Positions 11,086 through 60,274 of a DNA stretch of 61,544 nt are shown here, one piece after another; within the stretch, counting starts at the first letter, position 1, and each line of letters opens with the position of its first letter. The notes beneath the pieces are model-generated. The model was not told where the DNA came from, made no database searches, and saw nothing but the letters and a program-made list of their open reading frames with translations. The DNA is from Pseudobdellovibrionaceae bacterium (GTDB taxonomy: Bacteria > Bdellovibrionota > Bdellovibrionia > Bdellovibrionales > Bdellovibrionaceae), in NCBI GenBank assembly GCA_046318875.1, contig JBKCTJ010000178.1:1-61544 (forward strand), in the 5' to 3' direction. The position numbers and the translations under genes were made by a program.

Positions 11086-11283
11086 CTAGCCCGCCCAAGG
11101 CCCCGTATAAACAAAATCTATTCAATTTGAAATAGAATCTTTGATCTAGTTTTGGTCAGGGATCTTTCATTTCCATGCTTCATCGATTTAAAAATGAGTA
11201 CCATAATGGAACCATCACATGACGTGATGATATTGGGGAACCAGACCAAAGTTTGTTTGCGAAGCACCAGCCAAGGAGGGCCA

Positions 11284-12963
11284 GTGAGTTTTTTATCGAG
11301 ATTATCAGGTATCGTCAGTCTGTTTGCGATGTCGGCGCTTGTCGCCGTATCCGCGCACGCACAAGTTTCTCCATCGCTCAACCGAACAGAGCGTGAAAAA
11401 GAAATTGATGCAGAAGCAGTTCCCGGTGAATTTTTAGTCACACTAAAATCTGATGTGTCTGTTCAAGAAAGGAATATGCAAAGTCTGCATTCACTGATTG
11501 GGTCTCATGTGAAATCCACCATTCCTTTTTTAAATATCGCCGTTGTCTCCCGCCCAAGTTTTGAATTACAGCAAACTTCAGTAGATCTTCTCAAAGAAAA
11601 CCCACTTGTTTTGCGAGTGACACCAAATTTTGTTTATCGAGCGAACAAGCTGCCAAACGATGTTTTATTTGAAAAACTGTGGGGCCTGAAAAATACCGGA
11701 CAAACTGATACAAAACAAACCGGCACAGCTGGAATTGATATTGGTGCAGAGCAAGCTTGGGATTTAACAACTGGCTCGAAAGATATCATCATTGCTGTCA
11801 TCGATACGGGAATAAACTATAACCATCCGGATCTTGCGCCAAACATGTGGACGAATTCTGCAGAAAAAAACGGTGCAGTTGGAGTTGATGATGATGGGAA
11901 TGGTTTTGTAGATGATATTCACGGATACAATTTTGTGTCCAATAACGGAAACCCTTTAGATGACCAAGGACACGGATCACACTGCGCAGGAACTATTGGT
12001 GGCCGAGGAAATGACGGCGAAGGTGTTGCTGGAGTGACTTGGGAATCCCAATTGATGGCGGTCAAGTTTTTAGGAGCCGATGGATCTGGAACACTTGAGA
12101 ATGCTGTGAAGTCCATTGCCTATGCAACCCAAATGGGTGCAAAAATTCTCAGTAATTCATGGGGCGGAGGTGGCTTTTCGCAAGAATTGAAAGATGTTAT
12201 TGAAGCCTCCAATCAAGCCGGAACAATCTTTGTTGCCGCAGCAGGAAATAGTTCTTCAAATAACGATAGCTCCCCTGGTTATCCGGCAAGTTATGATGTT
12301 GCAAATATTATCTCCGTCGCAGCAATTGATAATCGTGGAGCTCTTGCAAGCTTTTCAAGTTATGGAAAGAAAAAAGTACACGTTGGTGCTCCGGGCGTGA
12401 ACGTTTTAAGTGTGACGATGAAGGGTTTTGAAGCTTGGTCTGGCACCTCAATGGCGACTCCCCACGTTTCAGGGATTGCCGCATTACTTTGGAGTTTTGA
12501 TAACCAATTGACTAACACAGAAATCAAAAATCGACTTATTTCAACAGCTGTTCCCTTGGCAAGTCTTCGAAACAAAGTTGCCAGTGGCGGTCTTGCTCAT
12601 GCATGGACAGCTTTAAATAACATTCTTCCGCCGCCTGATTTAAATGATCCAGCGTTGTGGCAGACTCAAGCGTTTGAAATTTCAACTGCTCACCCTTATG
12701 CTTCGAACACCGTTCAAACTTGGGAAATTTCGATTCCAGAGGCCAAAGAAATGGCTTTGTATTTTTCCAAATTTGATTTGGAAAACAGATACGACTTCCT
12801 CGAGGTCTATGATGCGTCCGGAAAGCTTCTTACTAAATACTCCGGAGGAATGGATGAATCATTTTCAGATGCGATTCAAGGAAACTATGTGAAAATCGTA
12901 TTTAAGTCGGACAATATTATAAACAATTATGGATTTGATCTAACGAAGGTTGCCTTCAGATAA
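11284..12963 (+). CDS. secreted subtilisin-like serine protease (S8) with I9-like propeptide and C-terminal CUB-like beta-sandwich
   Basis: Catalytic triad contexts VIDTGI (Asp), HGSHCAGTIGG (His) and SGTSMATPHVSG (Ser). Start set at in-frame GTG 11284, behind AAGGAGG, which gives the signal peptide SFLSRLSGIVSLFAMSALVAVSAHA. Confidence 0.9.
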   Translation: MSFLSRLSGIVSLFAMSALVAVSAHAQVSPSLNRTEREKEIDAEAVPGEFLVTLKSDVSVQERNMQSLHSLIGSHVKSTIPFLNIAVVSRPSFELQQTSVDLLKENPLVLRVTPNFVYRANKLPNDVLFEKLWGLKNTGQTDTKQTGTAGIDIGAEQAWDLTTGSKDIIIAVIDTGINYNHPDLAPNMWTNSAEKNGAVGVDDDGNGFVDDIHGYNFVSNNGNPLDDQGHGSHCAGTIGGRGNDGEGVAGVTWESQLMAVKFLGADGSGTLENAVKSIAYATQMGAKILSNSWGGGGFSQELKDVIEASNQAGTIFVAAAGNSSSNNDSSPGYPASYDVANIISVAAIDNRGALASFSSYGKKKVHVGAPGVNVLSVTMKGFEAWSGTSMATPHVSGIAALLWSFDNQLTNTEIKNRLISTAVPLASLRNKVASGGLAHAWTALNNILPPPDLNDPALWQTQAFEISTAHPYASNTVQTWEISIPEAKEMALYFSKFDLENRYDFLEVYDASGKLLTKYSGGMDESFSDAIQGNYVKIVFKSDNIINNYGFDLTKVAFR

Positions 12964-29840: not shown

Positions 29841-31904
29841 GTGAGTATTCATTTTTGGCAAGCTTCATTTATAGCTTTTGTTTTGGCTACTCTGAACGTT
29901 GTTCAGATTGGGAATATTCAACAAGTTTCTTTGAAACAAAAAATACGTGTTCAAACAAATAAAAAGTCACCCGCCTATTTAGCATTTCAACTTCTTCAAA
30001 AAAACGAAGAACACACAAAATCAGTAGACCCTGTTTGTACGGATCCGTGCGAATCCACAAATCTAGAAGCAACAGCCGGCATTCTCACTTTGGAAACTGA
30101 GCAAGCTTATCGCATTGGAAAAATGGTGTGGTTATCCAAAGTGAGTATTCAGCGTGAAGTGAGTGATCAGCCTGATCAATCAAGTGGATTCACAGCATCT
30201 TTATCCACACGGGAAGCCTTGAATCCCCAAGGCGGAAGCCGCTTTCAGCAGGACGGTAGCCGCTTTCAGCAGGATGGTAGCCGATTTAAAATGGGTGATT
30301 TGCAGGTATCGCAATACGACCAACCTCCACAGTTTTCCAAAGAACAATTTCAAGAAACAGCCGGAGCTCAAGCTTTGATGAGTCCCTTACATCTTCAAGG
30401 TACCATTGAGCTTGCCGGTGGACTCGCTGTGACTGACAGAATGAGTATTATTGTCGGCCGACACGAAGAAGGCCAAATTCAAGATTATGGAACAGTTGAT
30501 ATCGGTGCAGGCTTCTATGAAGTCAAAGTTCAGCGTCGAGCAGGAATGATCGTAGCGAAACTGGTGGATGATAAGGATCAACTTGTTGGAGAAGGTTTTT
30601 ATACGATCAATGCAGGAGATGTCGCTAACCAAAAAATAGTTATTCACCCTGTCAAATCATTGGCTGGTATTGGAGCTTATCAACAGCCACCCTCAAATGA
30701 TTCACTCACTCGTGGTGGCAGTAAGCCACCCGTTTTTGCACAAAACAACCTGGGAAGTGGATACTTCCAGGAGAGAAGTCCTCTGCCAAATGAAGAAAAA
30801 TCCTATACGCGCTCCACGGGGCTTGGCAAAAGCGATGGTCAGACTCACCCAAACTCTTTTGCGTTGTTAAGATCTGCTGCGAAAGACTATTTTCAAACGA
30901 ACCAAATTGTTCGCATTAAAGATAAAATTGAAAATACCCTCTACCCGCAATCAATGATCGATGCACTTCGAAAAATTGTGGCTGAGCAAAGAACCAGCGA
31001 ACTACAGTTTCAGAACTTGGGCGAAATGAATCTTGATGAAATGACCGTGATTTATGGAAAAGTCATGGACGAAGGAAAGCCTTCATCCGGCGTCAATGTT
31101 TCCATTGAAAGATTTCCAGACATGGTGCCTATTTATTTTAACGCTCTGATGATTCCAGACAAGGAATTAAAATCCACTTCAGCCAATGGATATTTTGCGT
31201 TTTTAGGACCGCCGGAAGGTATGCAGTCTTTGGTGGCACGAAGAGGAACTGCCTACATTTCCCACGTGAATGTCTACGCAGAAACTGGAGCAGTTTCCCA
31301 AGCGGATATTCAAATGACGCTCGCAATATCAGAAACCAATATCGTGGCTTTTGATGCCTTCACTGGGATCGTTCAACAGATGAAAGTGTCCTTGCAAAGC
31401 TTAAGTCAGGATGTTGAAACGAGTGAAGAAAATAATAACGTTTTGCTTCCTTCAGTAAACAGATTAAGTTTTGCTCACACCGAAAGAACCCCTATTTATT
31501 TTCCTAGTACTTTTGTTTATAATGATAAACAGGCTTTGATTCATTTGCCGCTGTTGCAAACCGAATGGCTAAATTCAATGAATATTAAAGTCTATGAAAA
31601 ATCGGGTCAGCAAGTGAGTCCGTTGTTTGGATTTATCGTAGGTTTTGTTCAAGATGATGATTTTATTGTTGAAGTGATGGGATATAAGTCCGAGCAAAAA
31701 ACCCAAGTGATTTATTTTGATTCAACCGGTGAGATTCTGGAACAGCAGTATGGAATTGCCGGTGGCGGATTTTTAATTCCTAATTTTGAAGACAACTCTG
31801 CTCAGGTGAAAATCACTGGTAGAAATTCAAGAATGTCATTCTTGCAAATGGTTCCTGTGGATTCACAAACAGCATCAGTCCTGACTTTTAAATTTAAAGA
31901 TTGA
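29841..31904 (+). CDS. hypothetical large secreted protein with CarboxypepD_reg-like beta-sandwich segments
   Basis: N-terminal hydrophobic segment. Segments such as VIYGKVMDEGKPSSGVNVSIE...SANGYFAFLGPPEGMQSLVA resemble carboxypeptidase-regulatory folds. GTG start. Confidence 0.6.
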   Translation: MSIHFWQASFIAFVLATLNVVQIGNIQQVSLKQKIRVQTNKKSPAYLAFQLLQKNEEHTKSVDPVCTDPCESTNLEATAGILTLETEQAYRIGKMVWLSKVSIQREVSDQPDQSSGFTASLSTREALNPQGGSRFQQDGSRFQQDGSRFKMGDLQVSQYDQPPQFSKEQFQETAGAQALMSPLHLQGTIELAGGLAVTDRMSIIVGRHEEGQIQDYGTVDIGAGFYEVKVQRRAGMIVAKLVDDKDQLVGEGFYTINAGDVANQKIVIHPVKSLAGIGAYQQPPSNDSLTRGGSKPPVFAQNNLGSGYFQERSPLPNEEKSYTRSTGLGKSDGQTHPNSFALLRSAAKDYFQTNQIVRIKDKIENTLYPQSMIDALRKIVAEQRTSELQFQNLGEMNLDEMTVIYGKVMDEGKPSSGVNVSIERFPDMVPIYFNALMIPDKELKSTSANGYFAFLGPPEGMQSLVARRGTAYISHVNVYAETGAVSQADIQMTLAISETNIVAFDAFTGIVQQMKVSLQSLSQDVETSEENNNVLLPSVNRLSFAHTERTPIYFPSTFVYNDKQALIHLPLLQTEWLNSMNIKVYEKSGQQVSPLFGFIVGFVQDDDFIVEVMGYKSEQKTQVIYFDSTGEILEQQYGIAGGGFLIPNFEDNSAQVKITGRNSRMSFLQMVPVDSQTASVLTFKFKD
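30234..30287 (+). repeat. in-frame 21-bp tandem repeat (2.6 copies) encoding GSRFQQD
   Basis: GGAAGCCGCTTTCAGCAGGAC / GGTAGCCGCTTTCAGCAGGAT / GGTAGCCGATTT. Confidence 0.9.
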
Positions 31905-33374: not shown

Positions 33375-34889
33375 ATGTCTGACTTGGAAACAAAATCCAC
33401 GCCAAATTTTAAGACAGCAAAACACACAACGATCATTAGTGATTTGCATTTGTGCGAGGCCGAGCCGGTTCACCCGAAGTACCCCCTGTGGAAGAAGTTT
33501 AAAACCAAAGAATTTTTCTTTGATCATATCTTTGCAGACTTTCTGATCAAGATCGAAAAAAAAGCCGCTGGGGATTCTGTGGAGTTAATATTAAACGGGG
33601 ATATTTTTGATTTTGATTCAGTGACAAAGCAGCCGGAATATCCTCTTTTTTCCAGCAGTTGGACCGAAAAGAGACATGGTCTGCTTCCACGCGCGGATAA
33701 GTCAGCTTTTAAAATCAAAGTCATTTTAGACGATCATGAGGAGTTTATAACAGCTCTGCGAGAATTCGTGATCCGTGGACATCGGGTTGTCTTCATTACT
33801 GGAAATCATGATTTAGAACTTCATTTTCCAGAAGTTCAAAAAACAATTCGAGATCGTTTGCAGCTTTCTTCCGAACAACAGGAGCATATTCGCTTTGTCG
33901 AATGGTTTTATATCAGTAACAGTGACACATTGATCGAGCATGGAAATCAGTACGATCCCTATTGCGTTTGTGAAGATCCGCTGACGCCATTTATTCGTGG
34001 ATATAATTTTACTTCGATGAAGCTTCCTTTTGGAAATCAGGCGTGCCGGTACATCACGAATGCTATGGGGTTTTTCAATCCCCATGTGGACACAAACTAT
34101 ATTATGACGCTGGATCAATACGTAACCGTATTCCTGAGGTATATGGTGCGTGCCCAACCCCTGATCGTGTTTACATGGTTTTTTGGTGCATTAAATACGC
34201 TTTGGTTTACTTTCAAAGATCGCTTTGCTGTGACGATTAAAAACCCCTACCGCATTGAAGATAAAACTGAAGAAGTTGCAAAAAAATCGAACTCAACACC
34301 ACGCATGGTTCGCGAATTGAAAGAGCTTTTTGCGGAACCCGCTTCATCCAGGCCCTTTCTTGTGTTGCAGGAGCTGTGGCTTGATCGCGCGTTTTTGATT
34401 ATGATCGGATTCTTTGTTGCATACCAGTTGATGGGAATTATTCGAACGATTTATTCTGTTTCTTTTTTTTGGATGCTGATTCCAATGTTTTTATTTTTTC
34501 CGTTCTTTTTGTTTTATTCTAAATCCGTATCTTCTTTGGTGTCCGGGTATAAAGAACCCGATGATCGCATTTTGGCGACAGCCAGTTCAATTACCAATGT
34601 TCAAAGAATTGTCTTTGGCCATACCCACATTGTTCGTCACGAAATGATTGGCTTTGTAGAACACTTAAACTCGGGCTGTTGGTCTCCTGCCTTTTTAGAT
34701 ATTGAGTGCACAAAACCCATCGATCAAAAAACCTTTGTATGGATCTCTGAAACTCAAGAGTACTCGGACGATGTGTCAAAAAAACAGGCAACAAGCCACG
34801 GACCCAGAAAAGCCGAGGTCTTTCGCTTCGAAAATGGTCAGATTAAGCCCGTTTTTGCAATCAGTGCTCGCCAAAGACAAAAAATTTAG
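33375..34889 (+). CDS. calcineurin-like metallophosphoesterase with C-terminal membrane segments
   Basis: ISDLHL, NGDIFDF, ITGNHD and GHTH motifs. Hydrophobic helices occur around residues 260-380. Confidence 0.8.
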   Translation: MSDLETKSTPNFKTAKHTTIISDLHLCEAEPVHPKYPLWKKFKTKEFFFDHIFADFLIKIEKKAAGDSVELILNGDIFDFDSVTKQPEYPLFSSSWTEKRHGLLPRADKSAFKIKVILDDHEEFITALREFVIRGHRVVFITGNHDLELHFPEVQKTIRDRLQLSSEQQEHIRFVEWFYISNSDTLIEHGNQYDPYCVCEDPLTPFIRGYNFTSMKLPFGNQACRYITNAMGFFNPHVDTNYIMTLDQYVTVFLRYMVRAQPLIVFTWFFGALNTLWFTFKDRFAVTIKNPYRIEDKTEEVAKKSNSTPRMVRELKELFAEPASSRPFLVLQELWLDRAFLIMIGFFVAYQLMGIIRTIYSVSFFWMLIPMFLFFPFFLFYSKSVSSLVSGYKEPDDRILATASSITNVQRIVFGHTHIVRHEMIGFVEHLNSGCWSPAFLDIECTKPIDQKTFVWISETQEYSDDVSKKQATSHGPRKAEVFRFENGQIKPVFAISARQRQKI

Positions 34890-34973
34890 GTTGTCAGAAA
34901 AGCGCAGAGTATGTGACGCTAAAACAGCGTTTAATTCGATTTAAAGTCTTTTATATTAAAGTAAGGAGCTTTT

Positions 34974-35168
34974 ATGGCAGAAGTTTTAGTTGTGACAAGC
35001 AAAGTAAAAAAGCTAATCAAAGAAAAAGGCGGCATGAACACTTCATCCGAGACGATTGCAGTGTTAAGCCAAGCCATTGAACAACTCTGCCTTAAAGGTG
35101 TAGAGAGCGCAAAGTCAGACGGTCGCAAAACTGTTATGGCTCGAGATATCGTGATCGATCACTTGTAA
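34974..35168 (+). CDS. histone-fold DNA-binding protein (bacterial histone, Bd0055/HBb-like)
   Basis: 64 aa, MAEVLVVTSKVKKLIKEKGG...SAKSDGRKTVMARDIVIDHL. The helix-loop-long helix-loop-helix layout and the GRKTV..DI block align with archaeal HMfB AGRKTIKAEDIE. AAGGAG RBS 5 nt upstream. It has its own terminator. Confidence 0.85.
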   Translation: MAEVLVVTSKVKKLIKEKGGMNTSSETIAVLSQAIEQLCLKGVESAKSDGRKTVMARDIVIDHL

Positions 35169-35199
35169 TTTCAAATTTATTCAAATTTGTTTTCAATTC

Positions 35200-35231
35200 C
35201 GGACCTGATGGAAAATCAGGTCCGTTTCTTT
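35200..35231 (+). terminator. intrinsic terminator of the histone gene
   Basis: 10-bp stem CGGACCTGAT/ATCAGGTCCG, loop GGAAA, then TTTCTTT. Confidence 0.8.
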
Positions 35232-35272
35232 ATGTCATAAAACGTCTATTTTTCCTTAGAGATGGTTTGAGC

Positions 35273-37294
<2,022 letters not shown>

Positions 37295-37487: not shown

Positions 37488-37769
37488 GTGATTGATCAAA
37501 AGAATATCGAGCATATTGCCAAACTAGCAAAACTTAGAATTTCTGAAGATGAAGCCAAACAATATGCGGCTCAACTTTCGAAATCTTTGGAATATTTTGA
37601 CCAAATTTCTCAAGTCGATGTGACTGGTGTTGAGCCCATGGTGACACCTTCTGATATCGAAGTTTTTTTGCGAGATGATCAAGTCGTGAAAACGGTATCT
37701 TCTGAAGACCTTGTCGCCAATGCACCAGAGCGCCTAGGACATTTGTTTAAAGTTCCACCAGTAGTTTAA
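37488..37769 (+). CDS. gatC: Asp/Glu-tRNA amidotransferase subunit C
   Basis: In-frame GTG 37488 behind GGAGAA gives a 93-aa protein, IDQKNIEHIAKLAKLRISEDEA... The longer ORF-track N-terminus looks non-coding. Confidence 0.88.
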   Translation: MIDQKNIEHIAKLAKLRISEDEAKQYAAQLSKSLEYFDQISQVDVTGVEPMVTPSDIEVFLRDDQVVKTVSSEDLVANAPERLGHLFKVPPVV

Positions 37770-37805
37770 AACCTTCATCTAAAAGCCAGTTCAAAGGGAT
37801 AATCC

Positions 37806-39284
37806 ATGGATTTATTAAATGCGAGCATGAAACAAATTGGACAAGCTGTTCAAGATAAAAAAATCAAAGCAACAGAAGTCGCCAGTTTTTTTCAGCAAAG
37901 AATTTCTCAGTACGATCAACAGTTAAATAGTTACATCACACAAAACAATCGGCTTTTAGAAGATGCCAAAGGAATCGATGATCGTATCGCTAAGGGCGAA
38001 ACCCTTGGTGTTTTTGCAGGTGTTCCCATGGGCATCAAAGATATGTTTTGCACCAAGGGAATTCGGACGACGGCAGCTTCTAAGATTTTAGAAAACTTTG
38101 TTCCGCCCTATGATTCAACAGTGGTTGCTCGCTTAAAAAACTCAGGCGTCACTATCTTGGGAAAATTGAATCAAGACGAATTTGCCATGGGTTCAAGCAA
38201 CGAGAGTTCGTATTTTGGTGCAGTGAAAAATCCATGGAATTTGGCTCACAGTCCTGGGGGATCCAGTGGTGGTTCTGCTGCGGCTCAAGCGGCCGGGCTT
38301 GCTTGTGGAACTGTGGGCACGGATACGGGTGGATCTATTAGACAACCTGCAAGTTTTTGTGGAATTGTCGGAGTGAAGCCAACCTACGGCCGCGTAAGTA
38401 GATATGGAATCATTGCTTTTGCTTCAAGTCTTGATCAAGCCGGTCCAATGGTGAACACAGTCGATGATGCAGCAGCGATGTTGGAAGTTATCAGTGGCCA
38501 TGACGAGATGGACGCCACAACGTCTCAACGACCAGTGCCAGCCTTTTCAAAAAATTTAAAAGAAGACATCAAGGGAATGAAAATTGGTTTATTGAAAGAA
38601 TATCAAACAGACAAATTGAATTCAGATGTTCAAAAAGCGGTTTCAGAAGCCATTGAGATTTTGAAAAAAAGGGGAGCCGAAATTGTCGAAGTTTCTGCGC
38701 CGCTAACGAAATATGCTATTCCGATTTATTATTTGATCGCGACCAGCGAAGCGTCTTCCAATTTGGCAAGATATGACGGGGTCAAGTATGGCTTCCGCGC
38801 ACCAGAGCTTAAGTTAAATAAATATGATTTAGATGATTTTTATTCCATCACACGGGGGCTTGGTTTTGGGAAAGAAGTAAAAAGACGAATCATGTTAGGG
38901 ACCTACTGCTTATCCAGTGGCTATTTCGATGCTTACTATAAAAAAGCATGCCAGGTGCGCCGTTTGTTGCGTGATCAATATGTTGCCGCTTTTCAAAAAT
39001 GCGATGTGATTTTGAGTCCAATGACCACGCAGCCTGCTTTTAAGTTGGGTGAAAATTCCAATGACCCACTTGCAATGTATTTAAATGACATTTTTACTGT
39101 TTCGACAAATATGGCAGGCTTACCTGGCATGAGCCTTCCTTTTGCGATGTCGGGAACAGGTTTACCTATTGGAATTCAACTGACAGCTTGTCACTTTGAA
39201 GAACAAAAAATGTTGAATGTTGGTTTTGCATTGGAAAAATCCACCAAAATGTCTGAAATGAAGCCGAAAGGATTTGCATCATGA
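37806..39284 (+). CDS. gatA: Asp/Glu-tRNA amidotransferase subunit A
   Basis: Amidase signature GGSSGGSAAA...GTDTGGSIRQPA. Confidence 0.96.
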   Translation: MDLLNASMKQIGQAVQDKKIKATEVASFFQQRISQYDQQLNSYITQNNRLLEDAKGIDDRIAKGETLGVFAGVPMGIKDMFCTKGIRTTAASKILENFVPPYDSTVVARLKNSGVTILGKLNQDEFAMGSSNESSYFGAVKNPWNLAHSPGGSSGGSAAAQAAGLACGTVGTDTGGSIRQPASFCGIVGVKPTYGRVSRYGIIAFASSLDQAGPMVNTVDDAAAMLEVISGHDEMDATTSQRPVPAFSKNLKEDIKGMKIGLLKEYQTDKLNSDVQKAVSEAIEILKKRGAEIVEVSAPLTKYAIPIYYLIATSEASSNLARYDGVKYGFRAPELKLNKYDLDDFYSITRGLGFGKEVKRRIMLGTYCLSSGYFDAYYKKACQVRRLLRDQYVAAFQKCDVILSPMTTQPAFKLGENSNDPLAMYLNDIFTVSTNMAGLPGMSLPFAMSGTGLPIGIQLTACHFEEQKMLNVGFALEKSTKMSEMKPKGFAS

Positions 39285-40714
39285 ATCTTCGAGGATATGA
39301 ATCTGTCATTGGACTTGAAGTCCATGTTCAATTGAAAACAAAAAGCAAAGTTTTTTGTGGAGATTCCACGGTCTTTGATGCCGGTGATAACGAAAATGCA
39401 TCGCCGATTTCTTGTGGAATGCCGGGGACTCTCCCCGTTTTAAATAAAACAGCAGTTGAAATGTCTATTAAGACGGGCCTTGCCTTGGGCTGTGATATCC
39501 GTCGCAAATCCGTATTTTCAAGAAAAAATTATTTTTATCCCGATCTGCCAAAGGGCTACCAAATTTCTCAGTATGATTTGCCACTGTGTGAAAATGGCAG
39601 CTTAACTATTTTACTCGACGGTGTAGAGAAAACGATTCGCATTGAGCGAGCCCACATGGAAGAAGATGCTGGGAAATCAAATCACCATGGCGACTACACT
39701 TTGGTGAACTATAACCGAGCGGGTATTCCACTTTTAGAAATCGTTTCTGGTCCGGATATGCGATCTGCCCAAGAAGCCGCTCAGTACGCCCGAACCATGA
39801 GACAAGTGGTGAGATATTTAGATGTTTGCGATGGCAATCTTGAAGAAGGATCTTTGCGTTGTGATTGCAATGTCAGCGTGCGTAAAATAGGTGCGCCAAA
39901 ATTTGGAACCAAAGTTGAGTTGAAAAATATCAACTCGTTTCGATTTATAGAAAAAGCCATTGAGTATGAAATTGAACGACAAATCGATGCCATCGAAAGA
40001 GGCGAAAAAATCGTTCAAGAAACCAGACTTTACGATCCAGATAAAAATCGTACTTTCTCAATGAGAACCAAAGAAGACGCTCAGGACTATCGATACTTTC
40101 CAGATCCAGACTTGTTGCCTTTGCAAATCGCGGAAGCCCAAATTGAACAAATTCGCAAGACCTTACCGGAATTGCCATCAGCTCGCATCAAGCGTTTTCA
40201 AACAGCTTTTGGTCTTCCCCTTTACGATGCTGATGTTCTGACAAGTGAAAAAGAATTTTCAGATTATTTTGAAAAAACGGCTCTGGTTACAAAAAATCAC
40301 AAAGCAGATTCGAATTGTATCATGTCGGATTTGATGCGAGAACTGAATGAGAATAAATTAGATGTGACGAGATCACCGATTTCTCCACAAATGTTGGGCG
40401 AAATGATTTTGCTCATTGACCAGGGCACAATCTCGGGAAAAATGGCAAAAACAGTTTTTGTTGAGATGTGGAAATCAGGAAAAGACCCAGCAACCATCGT
40501 CAAAGAAAAAGGCCTCGTCCAAATTACAGACACTTCTGCTATTGAAAAAATCATTGATGAAGTGCTCGTAGCAAATCCAACAGAAGTAGCAGCTTTCCGC
40601 GGTGGCAAAACGAAATTGATGGGATTTTTTGTCGGTGCAGCCATGAAAGCCACCAAAGGACAAGCCAGCCCAGAAATGGTCAATAAAATCTTGGCTCAGA
40701 AACTTCAAGGATAA
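39281..40714 (+). CDS. gatB: Asp/Glu-tRNA amidotransferase subunit B
   Basis: YESVIGLEVHVQL and the C-terminal GatB/YqeY tail. ATGA overlap with gatA. Confidence 0.96.
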   Translation: MNLRGYESVIGLEVHVQLKTKSKVFCGDSTVFDAGDNENASPISCGMPGTLPVLNKTAVEMSIKTGLALGCDIRRKSVFSRKNYFYPDLPKGYQISQYDLPLCENGSLTILLDGVEKTIRIERAHMEEDAGKSNHHGDYTLVNYNRAGIPLLEIVSGPDMRSAQEAAQYARTMRQVVRYLDVCDGNLEEGSLRCDCNVSVRKIGAPKFGTKVELKNINSFRFIEKAIEYEIERQIDAIERGEKIVQETRLYDPDKNRTFSMRTKEDAQDYRYFPDPDLLPLQIAEAQIEQIRKTLPELPSARIKRFQTAFGLPLYDADVLTSEKEFSDYFEKTALVTKNHKADSNCIMSDLMRELNENKLDVTRSPISPQMLGEMILLIDQGTISGKMAKTVFVEMWKSGKDPATIVKEKGLVQITDTSAIEKIIDEVLVANPTEVAAFRGGKTKLMGFFVGAAMKATKGQASPEMVNKILAQKLQG

Positions 40715-44736: not shown

Positions 44737-46623
44737 TTGTCTGAACAAAAAGATCCACCAACAAAAACCACTAGCCGCCGAACTACTGCAGCACCAGCAG
44801 AAACCTTTAAAAAGCGCGGTCGCCAACCCAAAAACACTTCTGAAAACGAACAGCAGCCAGCTGAAAACAAGACCGAACAAGTGATGGACGCTCAGCAAGA
44901 CAGGCCACAGCAAAGTCACCAAGATTCTGCCCATGACGATCAACGCTCGCACCAAATGAAGTCTCAAAATACGACTCATCATGAGACACACAATTTGGCT
45001 CAAACAGAACCGAAAAATCAGGCACAGCCAACTGCAGTTCCCGCGAGCCAAGAGGGCAGCCCTCAAGAAGAAGGCCCAAGGCCACAACAGCCACAACAGC
45101 AACATCAAAGGCCGATGAACCCACAAAACAACCAGGGTTTTAGTCATAGCAACCGAAATCGTTTCGATAACAACAAACGAAACAATCACAGCAACAACAG
45201 GAATAATAACAACAATAATCAAAACCAACGACGTGATTTTCGAAACAATAATCACAATTCCAATCGCTTTCAGCAACCTCAAGATGAAATGTCTGCTTAT
45301 GAAGATCAAAAGCTTCAAGACACTGAAGTGGATTTGGCAGACATTAACTTAACTGAAGAAGAAAAAAGCTGGCTGAATTCAAAAGATTTAAAATCTAAAA
45401 ATATTCAACAGTTAACTGACCTTGCATTAAAATTGAAAATTGAAAATGCAGCGGGAATGCGAAGACAAGATATGGTCTTTGAGATCCTGAAGCGCGCAGC
45501 CAGACTGGGAGACATTTTCGGTTCTGGAGTTTTAGAGATATTACCAGATGGGTACGGTTTCCTAAGATCACCAGATTACAATTATTTGCCAGGACCAGAT
45601 GATATTTATGTCAGTCCTTCACAAATTCGTCGTTTTGGTTTGCGCACGGGAGACACCATTACAGGAACTGTTCGACCACCGAAAGACGGCGAACGTTACT
45701 TTGCACTTTTGAAAGTTGATTCTTTAAATTTTGAAACCACAGAAAAAGGGAAAGATAAAATCCTTTTTGATAACTTAACGCCACTTTATCCGAATGAAAG
45801 ATTAAAGCTCGAACATAATCCTGCAGATTACACCACGCGAGTTGTTGATTTGATGGCACCTTTAGGCAAGGGACAAAGGGGATTGATTGTTGCGCCACCG
45901 AGAACTGGAAAAACAGTTCTCATGCAAAATATTGCAAATGCGATTTCAGTGAATCATCCTGAAGTAAAATTAATTGTTTTATTGATTGATGAACGACCGG
46001 AAGAAGTCACGGACATGCTTCGTTCAGTCAAAGGCGAAGTTGTTAGCTCCACATTCGACGAACCACCAACACGACACGTTCAAGTTGCAGAAATGGTATT
46101 AGAAAAAGCAAAGCGTTTAGTTGAACACAAACATGACGTTGTTATCTTACTGGATTCTATCACTCGTCTGGCTCGTGCTTATAATACTGTGGTTCCACCA
46201 TCTGGAAAAATCTTGTCCGGCGGTGTTGATTCAAACGCGCTTCATAAACCAAAGCGATTCTTCGGAGCGGCCAGAAATATTGAAGAAGGCGGAAGTCTGA
46301 CGATTATTGCAACTGCCCTGATCGATACGGGTTCGCGGATGGACGAAGTTATCTTCGAAGAATTCAAAGGAACGGGTAATGCGGAAATTCACTTGGACCG
46401 AAAACTCATGGATAAACGAATTTTCCCTTGTATGGATATCAATAAGTCGGGAACTCGAAAAGAAGATTTGCTGATTGATAAAAATGATTTAAATCGCCTT
46501 TGGATTTTAAGAAAAGTTCTTGCGCCAATGAATGTCGTTGATGCCATGGAATTTTTAATTGGAAAAATCGAAGCGACGAAATCAAATACTCAATTTCTTC
46601 AAGCCATGAGCGGAGGAGGCTAA
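44737..46623 (+). CDS. rho: transcription termination factor Rho with an N-terminal low-complexity extension of about 210 aa
   Basis: [12 protein letters not shown] matches E. coli residues 29-40 but sits at 241-252. Also RRFGLRTGD, Walker A APPRTGKT and [16 protein letters not shown] start. Confidence 0.95.
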
Positions 46624-58016: not shown

Positions 58017-59315
58017 GTGATCGATCTTAAACTTCTGGAAAAAAAACCAGAATCTGGAACAAGCTATTACGATGAATATAAACAGTGCCTGTTGAACAGG
58101 GGTGCCGACGTTTCTGGCTTGGAAAAAGTTTTAGAACTGAATCGCAAACGCAAAGAACTGATGACATTGGCAGAAAACAATAAATCTAAACTGAATAAGT
58201 TCAGCGAAGAAATTGCCAAAATGAAGCGAACGGGCCAAGATGCTTCGAGCTTGATTGAAGATATGGGAAAGCTGTCTGCCGAAGTGAAGACGCTTGAAGC
58301 AAATGCAGCAGATGCAGACGAAGTCGTTAAACAGCAACTATCAACTTTACCAAACAAAACACACTCTTCGACTCCTGTTGGAGCCGATGCATCTGGCAAT
58401 ATTGAAATTAAAAAAATCGGAAATCCAAAAACATTTTCCTTTGCTGTGAAAGATCATGTTGATCTGGGCGACAAGCTAGGGGTTTTAGATTTTGAAAGAG
58501 GGACGAAAGTCACTGGTGCAAGATTTACTTTCCTAAAGGGACTCGGCGCGCGCCTAGAGAGAGCCCTTATTCAGTTTATGATGGACACTCATTCAACTAA
58601 AAATGGCTATACAGAAATGATTCCGCCATTTATGGCAAATACGCAAAGTTTTTTTGGCGTAGGTCAGTTTCCTAAATTCAAAGAAGATGTTTTTCAGTTA
58701 GCCGGTACAGATTATTATTTGATTCCAACAGCCGAAGTTCCAACAACAAACTATTATGCTGGAGAAATTTTAAAAGAAGAAGACTTGCCCATTTCTTTTT
58801 GCGCTTATTCGCCTTGTTTTCGTTCTGAGGCTGGCAGTCATGGCCGAGACACTCGTGGACTGATTCGCCAACATCAGTTTAATAAAGTTGAATTGATGAC
58901 TTTCTGTCATCCCGAAAAATCTTACGAACAGCTAGAAAAATTGACCGAACATGCAGAAATGATTCTTTCTGATTTGGAACTTCCCTATAAGAGAATGGCT
59001 TTGTGTACCGGGGATATTGGATTTGGCTCGTCAAAAACTTATGATCTGGAAGTGTGGTTGCCAGCGCAGAAAACATACCGAGAAATTTCGTCTTGTTCAA
59101 ATTTTGAAGATTTTCAAGCAAGACGTGCAAACATTCGTTTTAAGTCTCAGACCGGAAAACCTAGCTTCGTGCATACACTGAACGGAAGCGGTTTAGCAGT
59201 AGGTCGAACTGTGGTTGCAATACTTGAAAACTATCAACAAGAAGACGGGTCTGTGCAAATACCAAAAGCTTTAGTTAATTACATGGCAGGAGCGAAAGAG
59301 ATTCGATTGTCTTAA
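58017..59315 (+). CDS. serS: serine--tRNA ligase
   Basis: N-terminal coiled-coil arm. Class II motifs TGARF, FRSEAGS and [12 protein letters not shown] start behind GGAG. Confidence 0.96.
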
Positions 59316-60184: not shown

Positions 60185-60274
60185 GGAGAGTTGGTAGAGC
60201 GGTTGAATACACCAGTCTTGAAAACTGGCAGCCCTTCGCGGGGCTCGAGGGTTCGAATCCCTCACTCTCCGCCA
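60185..60274 (+). tRNA. tRNA-Ser (anticodon UGA), CCA encoded
   Basis: Acceptor GGAGAGT/ACTCTCC. D loop GAGCGGTTGAA. Anticodon arm CCAGT-CTTGAAA-ACTGG. Long variable arm. T arm GAGGG-TTCGAAT-CCCTC. Very similar to E. coli tRNA-Ser(UGA). Confidence 0.95.

Follow-up and report, generated by a model that had tools for sequence, protein, structure and literature searches.

Genomic context of the histone-fold gene

The stretch of DNA analysed here, referred to as the window, comprises 61,544 nucleotides of contig JBKCTJ010000178.1 (assembly GCA_046318875.1) from a Pseudobdellovibrionaceae bacterium. Our interest centres on a short gene on its forward strand and on the genes and signals that surround it:

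33375–34889, forward strand: metallophosphoesterase, calcineurin-like, 504 aa (PF00149; Metallophos match at residues 19–191)
34963–34968, forward strand: ribosome-binding site AAGGAG, as read from the sequence, followed by a 5-nt spacer (CTTTT) and the ATG
34974–35168, forward strand: histone-fold coding sequence, 64 aa, ATG start and TAA stop, very probably the ortholog of Bd0055/HBb
35200–35234, forward strand: intrinsic terminator with a 10-bp stem, a 5-nt loop and a T-rich tail
35273–37288, reverse strand: LigA, NAD-dependent DNA ligase, with seven Pfam LigA domains, convergent to the histone gene
37488–40714, forward strand: gatC-gatA-gatB operon (Pfam GatC, Amidase, GatB_N/GatB_Yqey)

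The 64-residue product of 34974–35168 (+) is MAEVLVVTSKVKKLIKEKGGMNTSSETIAVLSQAIEQLCLKGVESAKSDGRKTVMARDIVIDHL. Its stop-to-stop frame begins at 34965, and therefore the ATG at 34974 is the sole possible start. GGAG or GGAGG is found at the site equivalent to the ribosome-binding site in the histone orthologs. The terminator hairpin itself (35200–35224) has 6 G-C pairs in its 10-bp stem, a 5-nt loop and the tail TTTCTTTATG. The 86 nt around it have a folding energy of -20.4 kcal/mol (z = -4.1), which was equalled by none of 200 shuffles, and a G+C-rich hairpin followed by a T tract, of a different sequence, occupies the equivalent place in most of the 24 orthologous loci inspected. As the stem is not preceded by A-rich sequence, the terminator looks one-directional, serving the histone gene and not the convergent ligA. 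The initial annotation, which was made from the sequence by a model without database searches, had described a 64-aa open reading frame with AAGGAG 5 nt upstream and a 10-bp-stem terminator, and every one of these details is correct. It is plausible that the histone gene is a stand-alone transcription unit; read-through into it from the upstream metallophosphoesterase gene may occur.

In the window, the gene order is as follows: a 687-aa protein, a Mur ligase (-), the metallophosphoesterase (+), the histone (+), ligA (-) and gatC-gatA-gatB (+). The 687-aa protein (29841–31904, +) is without a Pfam match and contains the short tandem repeat GGSRFQQDGSRFQQDGSRF. The C-terminal half of the metallophosphoesterase contains hydrophobic, membrane-like stretches.

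Several other genes of the window deserve a brief mention. Transcription termination factor Rho (44737–46623, +), in which the Rho_N, Rho_RNA_bind and ATPase domains are recognized, carries an N-terminal extension of ~215 aa before Rho_N (~44737–45380) that is rich in Q, N, R and H and is encoded by the region with the highest AT skew of the window (0.215). This extension recalls the Q/N-rich insertion domains known from some Rho proteins. A subtilase (Peptidase_S8; 11152–12963, +) has a C-terminal CUB domain (E = 4e-9); CUB domains are mostly found in animal extracellular proteins. Seryl-tRNA synthetase (58017–59315, +) is encoded ~0.9 kb from tRNA-Ser(TGA) (60185–60274, +), with an opposite-strand 248-aa open reading frame in between. 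Apart from this one tRNA, no Rfam families were found in the window.

Conservation of the locus and selection on the histone gene

A scan of one genome per GTDB species identified 237 stretches with relatives, and the best 80 of these 237 loci were fetched. In these best 80 loci, the histone is 77–94% identical to the window protein, and 79 of the 80 histones could be aligned across all 64 residues. An identical histone is encoded by none of the GTDB representatives; the exact protein is recorded only on a handful of metagenome contigs, of which the three compared at the DNA level are 100% identical to the window. Almost all of the loci are labelled Bdellovibrio, Bdellovibrionaceae, Pseudobdellovibrionaceae or Bdellovibrionales. 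For two loci (L041 and L045), the taxonomic label is outdated or broad (Deltaproteobacteria, Pseudomonadota). In addition, a 3406-bp contig of a 'Bacillota bacterium' MAG (L005, JBLMWG010000244.1) bears metallophosphoesterase, histone, ligA, gatC and gatA of the Bdellovibrio type; since several Bdellovibrio sp. isolates have exactly this histone, the contig is probably mis-binned. At least 784 close homologs are present in the public protein collection.

The gene order of the window is the same in the B. bacteriovorus strains (L010, L011 and L013) and in most other loci, so that comparison of the ligA-gatCAB neighbourhood with B. bacteriovorus, proposed earlier as a check, shows the neighbourhood to be conserved. 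Among the 80 loci, ligA is convergent and immediately downstream of the histone gene in 72, and the metallophosphoesterase is directly upstream of it in 50, with an identity of 49–65%. The gatC-gatA-gatB genes are syntenic in 52–58 of the 80 loci (the start of gatC was taken from the gene called in locus L081, which is 100% identical to the window). The 687-aa protein is found in synteny 5' of the Mur ligase in 51/80 loci, with an identity of just 22–37%. The identity of flanking proteins to those of the fetched loci spans 34–82% (LigA 50–67%, Mur ligase 34–48%, GatB 60–82%). The GC content of the window is 41.5%, compared to 48–51% in the 12-kb B. bacteriovorus loci, which agrees with the earlier assignment of this DNA to a lower-GC lineage.

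At the DNA level, the histone gene is 75–82% identical to the 30 closest orthologs listed (mean of 76% over all 79). With respect to these 30, there are 20–34 synonymous and 4–8 non-synonymous codon differences. Substitutions in the histone frame are thus overwhelmingly synonymous, and therefore this is a real coding gene under very strong purifying selection.

Sequence identity and fold

The window protein and Bd0055/HBb of B. bacteriovorus (PDB 8FVX/8FW7, 8CMP/9EZZ/9F0E) share 59 of 64 residues (92% identity, E = 7e-32), in line with the near-identity to Bd0055 stated in the initial annotation. The Pfam family PF00808 (CBFD_NFYB_HMF) was matched with 22.4 bits, just over its gathering score of 21.4. 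We used a family profile built from 68 members for both the PDB search and hhalign. The PDB search returned HBb (1.6e-42), T. kodakarensis HTkC (2e-8), HmvA (2e-6) and Leptospira HLp (5e-5), followed by Asgard/archaeal histones (2e-4 to 3e-3). A histone-fold match had been named in advance as a test of the assignment, and both searches provide one: PF00808 scores over the gathering threshold, and the profile retrieves HBb as well as archaeal and Asgard histones (2e-6 to 3e-3).

In the hhalign comparison with archaeal HMfB, SDGRKTVMARDIVI is aligned with HAGRKTIKAEDIEL, there is a 4-residue gap in α2, and Ser48 lies opposite His49. The C-terminal alignment to HMfB made earlier by eye is thereby reproduced. 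HMMER alignments to HPhA and HmvA likewise have the 4-residue α2 gap, so that the two methods agree with the previous estimate of a central helix about 4 residues shorter than in HMfB. A pairwise BLASTP comparison with HMfB produced only an off-register spurious match (E = 0.068); the correct alignment was recovered by the profile comparison.

The AlphaFold2 monomer model (mean pLDDT 79.6) has helices at residues 2–19 and 25–48 and a single turn at 56–58, reproducing the layout of short helix, loop, long helix, loop and short helix suggested from the sequence. According to DSSP, the α3 region of the model is helical at 56–58 only, in agreement with the published description of 8FVX. The top five Foldseek matches in the PDB are all HBb structures, onto which the predicted monomer superposes with TM 0.77–0.84 and rmsd of 1.8–2.2 Å (E = 2e-7 to 2e-6), whereas other short histones and nucleosomal histones rank after HBb with much weaker E-values. 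The protein is thus a singlet histone fold of ~64 aa without tails or extra domains, in which α2 is about one turn shorter than in the HMf type and α3, in the AlphaFold2 model, is reduced to one turn with an extended C-terminus.

DNA-contact residues and lineage-specific substitutions

For HBb, the residues ranked highest for DNA contacts in molecular dynamics were N22, R57, S9, T53, T8, S24, K10, K12, K52 and K16 (Hu et al. 2024, PMC11317129). In the HBb crystal, K12, T23, S24, A25, K52, T53 and R57 contact backbone phosphates, A25 doing so via its own backbone in PDB 9EZZ, and T8, S9 and K10 form a second DNA interface (PMC11317129). The window protein has all ten top-ranked contact residues, none of which varies among 79 orthologs; T23 and the bacteria-specific S9-K10 motif are also present and invariant across the orthologs. 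The same holds for the RKT(V) motif in L2 (R51, K52, T53, V54), the RD clamp (R51-D58) and D49, again invariant in 79 orthologs. An ortholog from a lower-GC lineage had been expected to be informative about conservation of the DNA-contact residues; all side-chain contacts turn out to be kept, and A25 is replaced by Ser.

Five substitutions lead from Bd0055 to the window protein: Q20G, A25S, D29A, K33Q and A48S. The net charge is the same (pI 8.89 vs 8.85 for Bd0055). G20, S25 and S48 are frequently seen in the family, Ser25 occurring in 17 of the 79 orthologs. The remaining two positions are encoded by codons at 35058–35060 (29) and 35070–35072 (33) and are residues i and i+4 on α2. All 79 GTDB orthologs have an acidic residue at position 29 (64 Asp, 15 Glu) and none has Ala29, and Gln33 is present in 2 of the 79. 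Among the 128 closest 64-residue database proteins, 12 combine A29 with Q33, 95 have D/E29 with K33, 10 have D29 with Q33 and 3 have A29 with K33. D29 and K33 are an acid-base pair on the exposed flank of α2. The combined replacement, as it appears in these sequences, suggests that both partners of a surface salt bridge were lost together within one sub-lineage. Neither of the two HBb structural papers discusses residues 29 and 33 (PMC10627809, PMC11317129), and this lineage-specific D29A/K33Q pair may be new.

A conserved element upstream of the histone gene

A consensus sigma-70 scan of positions 34600–35500 returned zero promoters. When upstream regions were compared, a conserved element, TTGTCA-N12/13-TATG, became apparent, located in the window at 34891–34913. 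It occurs once in the window compared to 0.09 occurrences expected by chance. In 33 of 79 orthologous loci (e.g. L001–L024), it is situated 58–69 nt 5' of the histone ATG, and it is nearly exclusive to the histone upstream region, which accounts for 33 of its 37 occurrences in 1.62 Mb of locus sequence searched on both strands. The following elements may be assigned to it in the window:

34891–34896, forward strand: putative -35 element TTGTCA, just past the metallophosphoesterase stop codon
34912–34920, forward strand: putative extended -10 element, consisting of TG, one base and the weak hexamer GACGCT

In the alignment anchored on TATG, the next bases are Y, R, A, N, N, C and T. The TG as well as positions 2 (A), 5 (C) and 6 (T) of the hexamer are invariant in 34 of 34 sequences of this alignment, and the spacing between TTGTCA and the -10 hexamer is 17–18 nt. 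The hexamer is AAACCT in the genus Bdellovibrio and GACGCT in the window; both retain the A (position 2) and the T (position 6) that are critical. It matches TATAAT at 2 of 6 positions only, which is why the consensus scan missed this candidate -10. The best-fitting reading of the conserved bases is a promoter, which we infer to be composed of TTGTCA, a 17–18-nt spacer and a weak -10 extended by TG. Under this putative promoter, transcription would start near 34927. The reading of the conserved upstream element as an extended -10 promoter may be new.

Other interpretations of the element were considered by eye and rejected. As a -35/-10 pair with a 13-nt spacer it would have too short a spacer. 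The GG-N10-GC spacing of a sigma-54 site is unmatched, with no GG in the window sequence of the element. For a sigma-32 site, there is no CCC before TAT in the window and the spacing is ~3 nt short. Finally, for an inverted-repeat operator the half-sites are only weakly similar.

The histone as a probable non-wrapping dimer

Taken together, the sequence and structural comparisons make us highly confident that 34974–35168 encodes an ortholog of Bd0055/HBb belonging to the 'bacterial dimer' (α3-truncated) class, that is, a nucleoid protein that would form a non-wrapping handshake dimer. Every testable sequence and structural hallmark of this class is found in the window protein, and those of archaeal nucleosomal histones are missing. 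Two chains would associate into a handshake homodimer, as judged by the 92% identity to a crystallographic dimer. Binding of this dimer to DNA is expected to be independent of sequence and to take place at the backbone, across the minor groove, through the L1-L2 loops (N22, T23 and S24; K52, T53 and R57) together with the first turn of α1 (T8, S9, K10, K12 and K16). Transcription would proceed on its own from the conserved putative promoter with its near-consensus -35 and extended -10, and the strong ribosome-binding site and the gene's own terminator would complete the unit. The window histone is most likely an abundant nucleoid protein, to judge from its close relationship to HBb. Non-specific DNA binding, high abundance and association with the nucleoid are documented for Bd0055; for the window protein, the strong ribosome-binding site, the terminator and the extreme purifying selection lend them indirect support. 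In this architectural role, isolated dimers would bend DNA, and at high occupancy they might also coat it; we consider this the most likely mode of action.

The DNA-binding modes published for HBb conflict: a filament on straight DNA was described in one case (PMC10627809) and bending in the other (PMC11317129, PMC11390915), and the in vivo role of HBb was still called unknown in a 2025 preprint (10.1101/2025.09.24.678257). It is possible, although we find it clearly less likely than bending, that the same ortholog forms a nucleohistone filament in the cell, in which each dimer contacts DNA end-on via a single L1-L2 site and straight DNA is encased at approximately one dimer per 2.5 bp. In the filament, dimers exchange their N-terminal AEVL segment, and the window protein has the identical sequence there; the very high abundance of the histone in B. 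bacteriovorus would permit coating. However, the second crystal form, solution data and molecular dynamics favour bending by a single dimer (PMC11317129; summarised in PMC11390915). Moreover, Ala29 removes one acidic side chain, and it is the acidic underside that serves dimer-dimer contacts in the filament model, assuming that residue 29 is part of it.

A rather doubtful further reading would be that D29A/K33Q together with A48S define a sub-lineage with altered dimer-dimer packing, and hence an altered balance between coating and bending, and that, separately, TTGTCA-N17/18-(TGn)RANNCT is not a plain promoter but a dedicated regulatory site timing histone expression to the late growth phase.

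Very unlikely, in our estimate, is a nucleosomal histone of the archaeal HMf type, which would assemble into tetramers through a four-helix bundle and wrap DNA in a hypernucleosome-like manner. The common histone fold, the RKT motif and the RD clamp, as well as the weak matches to HMfA, HMfB, HPhA and Asgard histones, are what such a protein would have. Nonetheless, the window protein scores 31.2 bits with the NCBIfam model NF043032 (archaea_histone), under the cut-off of 50. Furthermore, the tetramerisation histidine is absent: Ser48 takes the position of His49 of HMfB, and Ser45 and Ile61, as in wild-type Bd0055, are non-tetramerising residues. Helix α2 is 4 residues shorter, and α3 is a single turn in the model. 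Experiments on Bd0055, which is 92% identical, point in the same direction. The wild-type protein gave neither a FRET wrapping signal nor an MNase ladder (PMC10627809); it does not wrap DNA since it is unable to tetramerise, and the A48H/S45F/I61L triple mutant alone gave a FRET wrapping signal (PMC10627809). Given Ser48 in place of His49, Ser45, Ile61, an α2 one turn shorter and a one-turn α3, neither tetramers nor nucleosome-like wrapping would be expected of the window protein.

Even less probable is a sequence-specific transcription factor subunit of the NF-Y/CBF type, although PF00808 also spans NF-YB/NF-YC and one NCBI record names a member of the cluster 'NFYB/HAP3 family transcription factor subunit'. 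This name is an automatic annotation transferred from the Pfam title. A profile search of the 904 open reading frames of at least 35 aa in the window finds this histone fold only and thus no partner gene, the protein is without additional domains, and HBb contacts the DNA backbone exclusively (PMC11317129). Lastly, the idea that this is a chance open reading frame, or that an overlapping frame from the mechanical list of open reading frames (34913–35080, +, or 34931–35128, -) is the true gene, is refuted by the overwhelmingly synonymous substitutions of the histone frame relative to 79 orthologs, by a ribosome-binding site and a terminator that suit this frame, and by a product that matches solved structures.

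Significance

As a probable non-wrapping dimer of the Bd0055/HBb type, the window histone is an ordinary member of a described family, whose structures and spread across Bdellovibrionota have already been published. Hocher et al. (2023, PMC10627809) reported a highly conserved Bd0055 homolog for 67% of the Bdellovibrionota genomes. The initial annotation had itself remarked that the family is already described, which is borne out by this distribution, published in 2023 (PMC10627809), and by the at least 784 close homologs. In the lineage of the window, other proteins have diverged to 34–82% identity, yet neither the DNA-contact surface nor the non-tetramerising residues have changed; this is what the window adds. 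Such constraint fits the published view of an essential protein under very strong constraint. Since bacterial histones were discovered only recently and are still debated, the correct identification of one from raw sequence represents a useful sanity check. In addition, the natural variant D29A/K33Q and the conserved promoter-like upstream element provide modest leads for work on HBb.

Comparison with known systems

The closest known system is Bd0055/HBb of B. bacteriovorus HD100 (PMC10627809, PMC11317129). The two proteins have in common the length of 64 aa, the fold, the short α2 and the one-turn α3, as well as S9-K10, RKT, the RD clamp with D49, all side-chain DNA contacts, the lack of the tetramerisation histidine and the flanking genes. 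They differ by the five substitutions, and the host of the window protein is uncultured, with ~41.5% GC. Within the broader classification, the window protein is a typical member of the 'bacterial dimer' histones, a minor α3-truncated class (Schwab et al. 2024, PMC11390915), with which it shares the RKTxxxD motif and conserved α1 lysines. For this class, which occurs in Bdellovibrionia, no assembly beyond the dimer is predicted (PMC11390915).

Leptospira HLp (PDB 9QT0–9QT2) and T. kodakarensis HTkC (PDB 9F2C) resemble the window protein in being short singlets with a truncated architecture (Foldseek TM 0.70–0.81). Unlike it, both HLp (profile E of 5e-5) and HTkC (2e-8) come from other clades, at ~35% identity and with no shared synteny. 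The archaeal histones HMfA/HMfB (PDB 1A7W, 1B67, 5T5K) have in common with the window protein the histone fold, the L2 RKT motif, the RD clamp and the principle of the handshake dimer. However, four additional residues in α2, a three-turn α3, His49, the sprocket arginine, tetramers and DNA wrapping are all features of HMfA/HMfB only, and the window protein is without them. Finally, with HU/IHF there is a functional analogy only. These are likewise small, abundant, dimeric and non-specific DNA benders, and similar DNA bending has been reported for HBb (PMC11317129, PMC11390915); their fold is nevertheless unrelated, and the window protein has no β-arms of the kind that HU/IHF insert into the minor groove.
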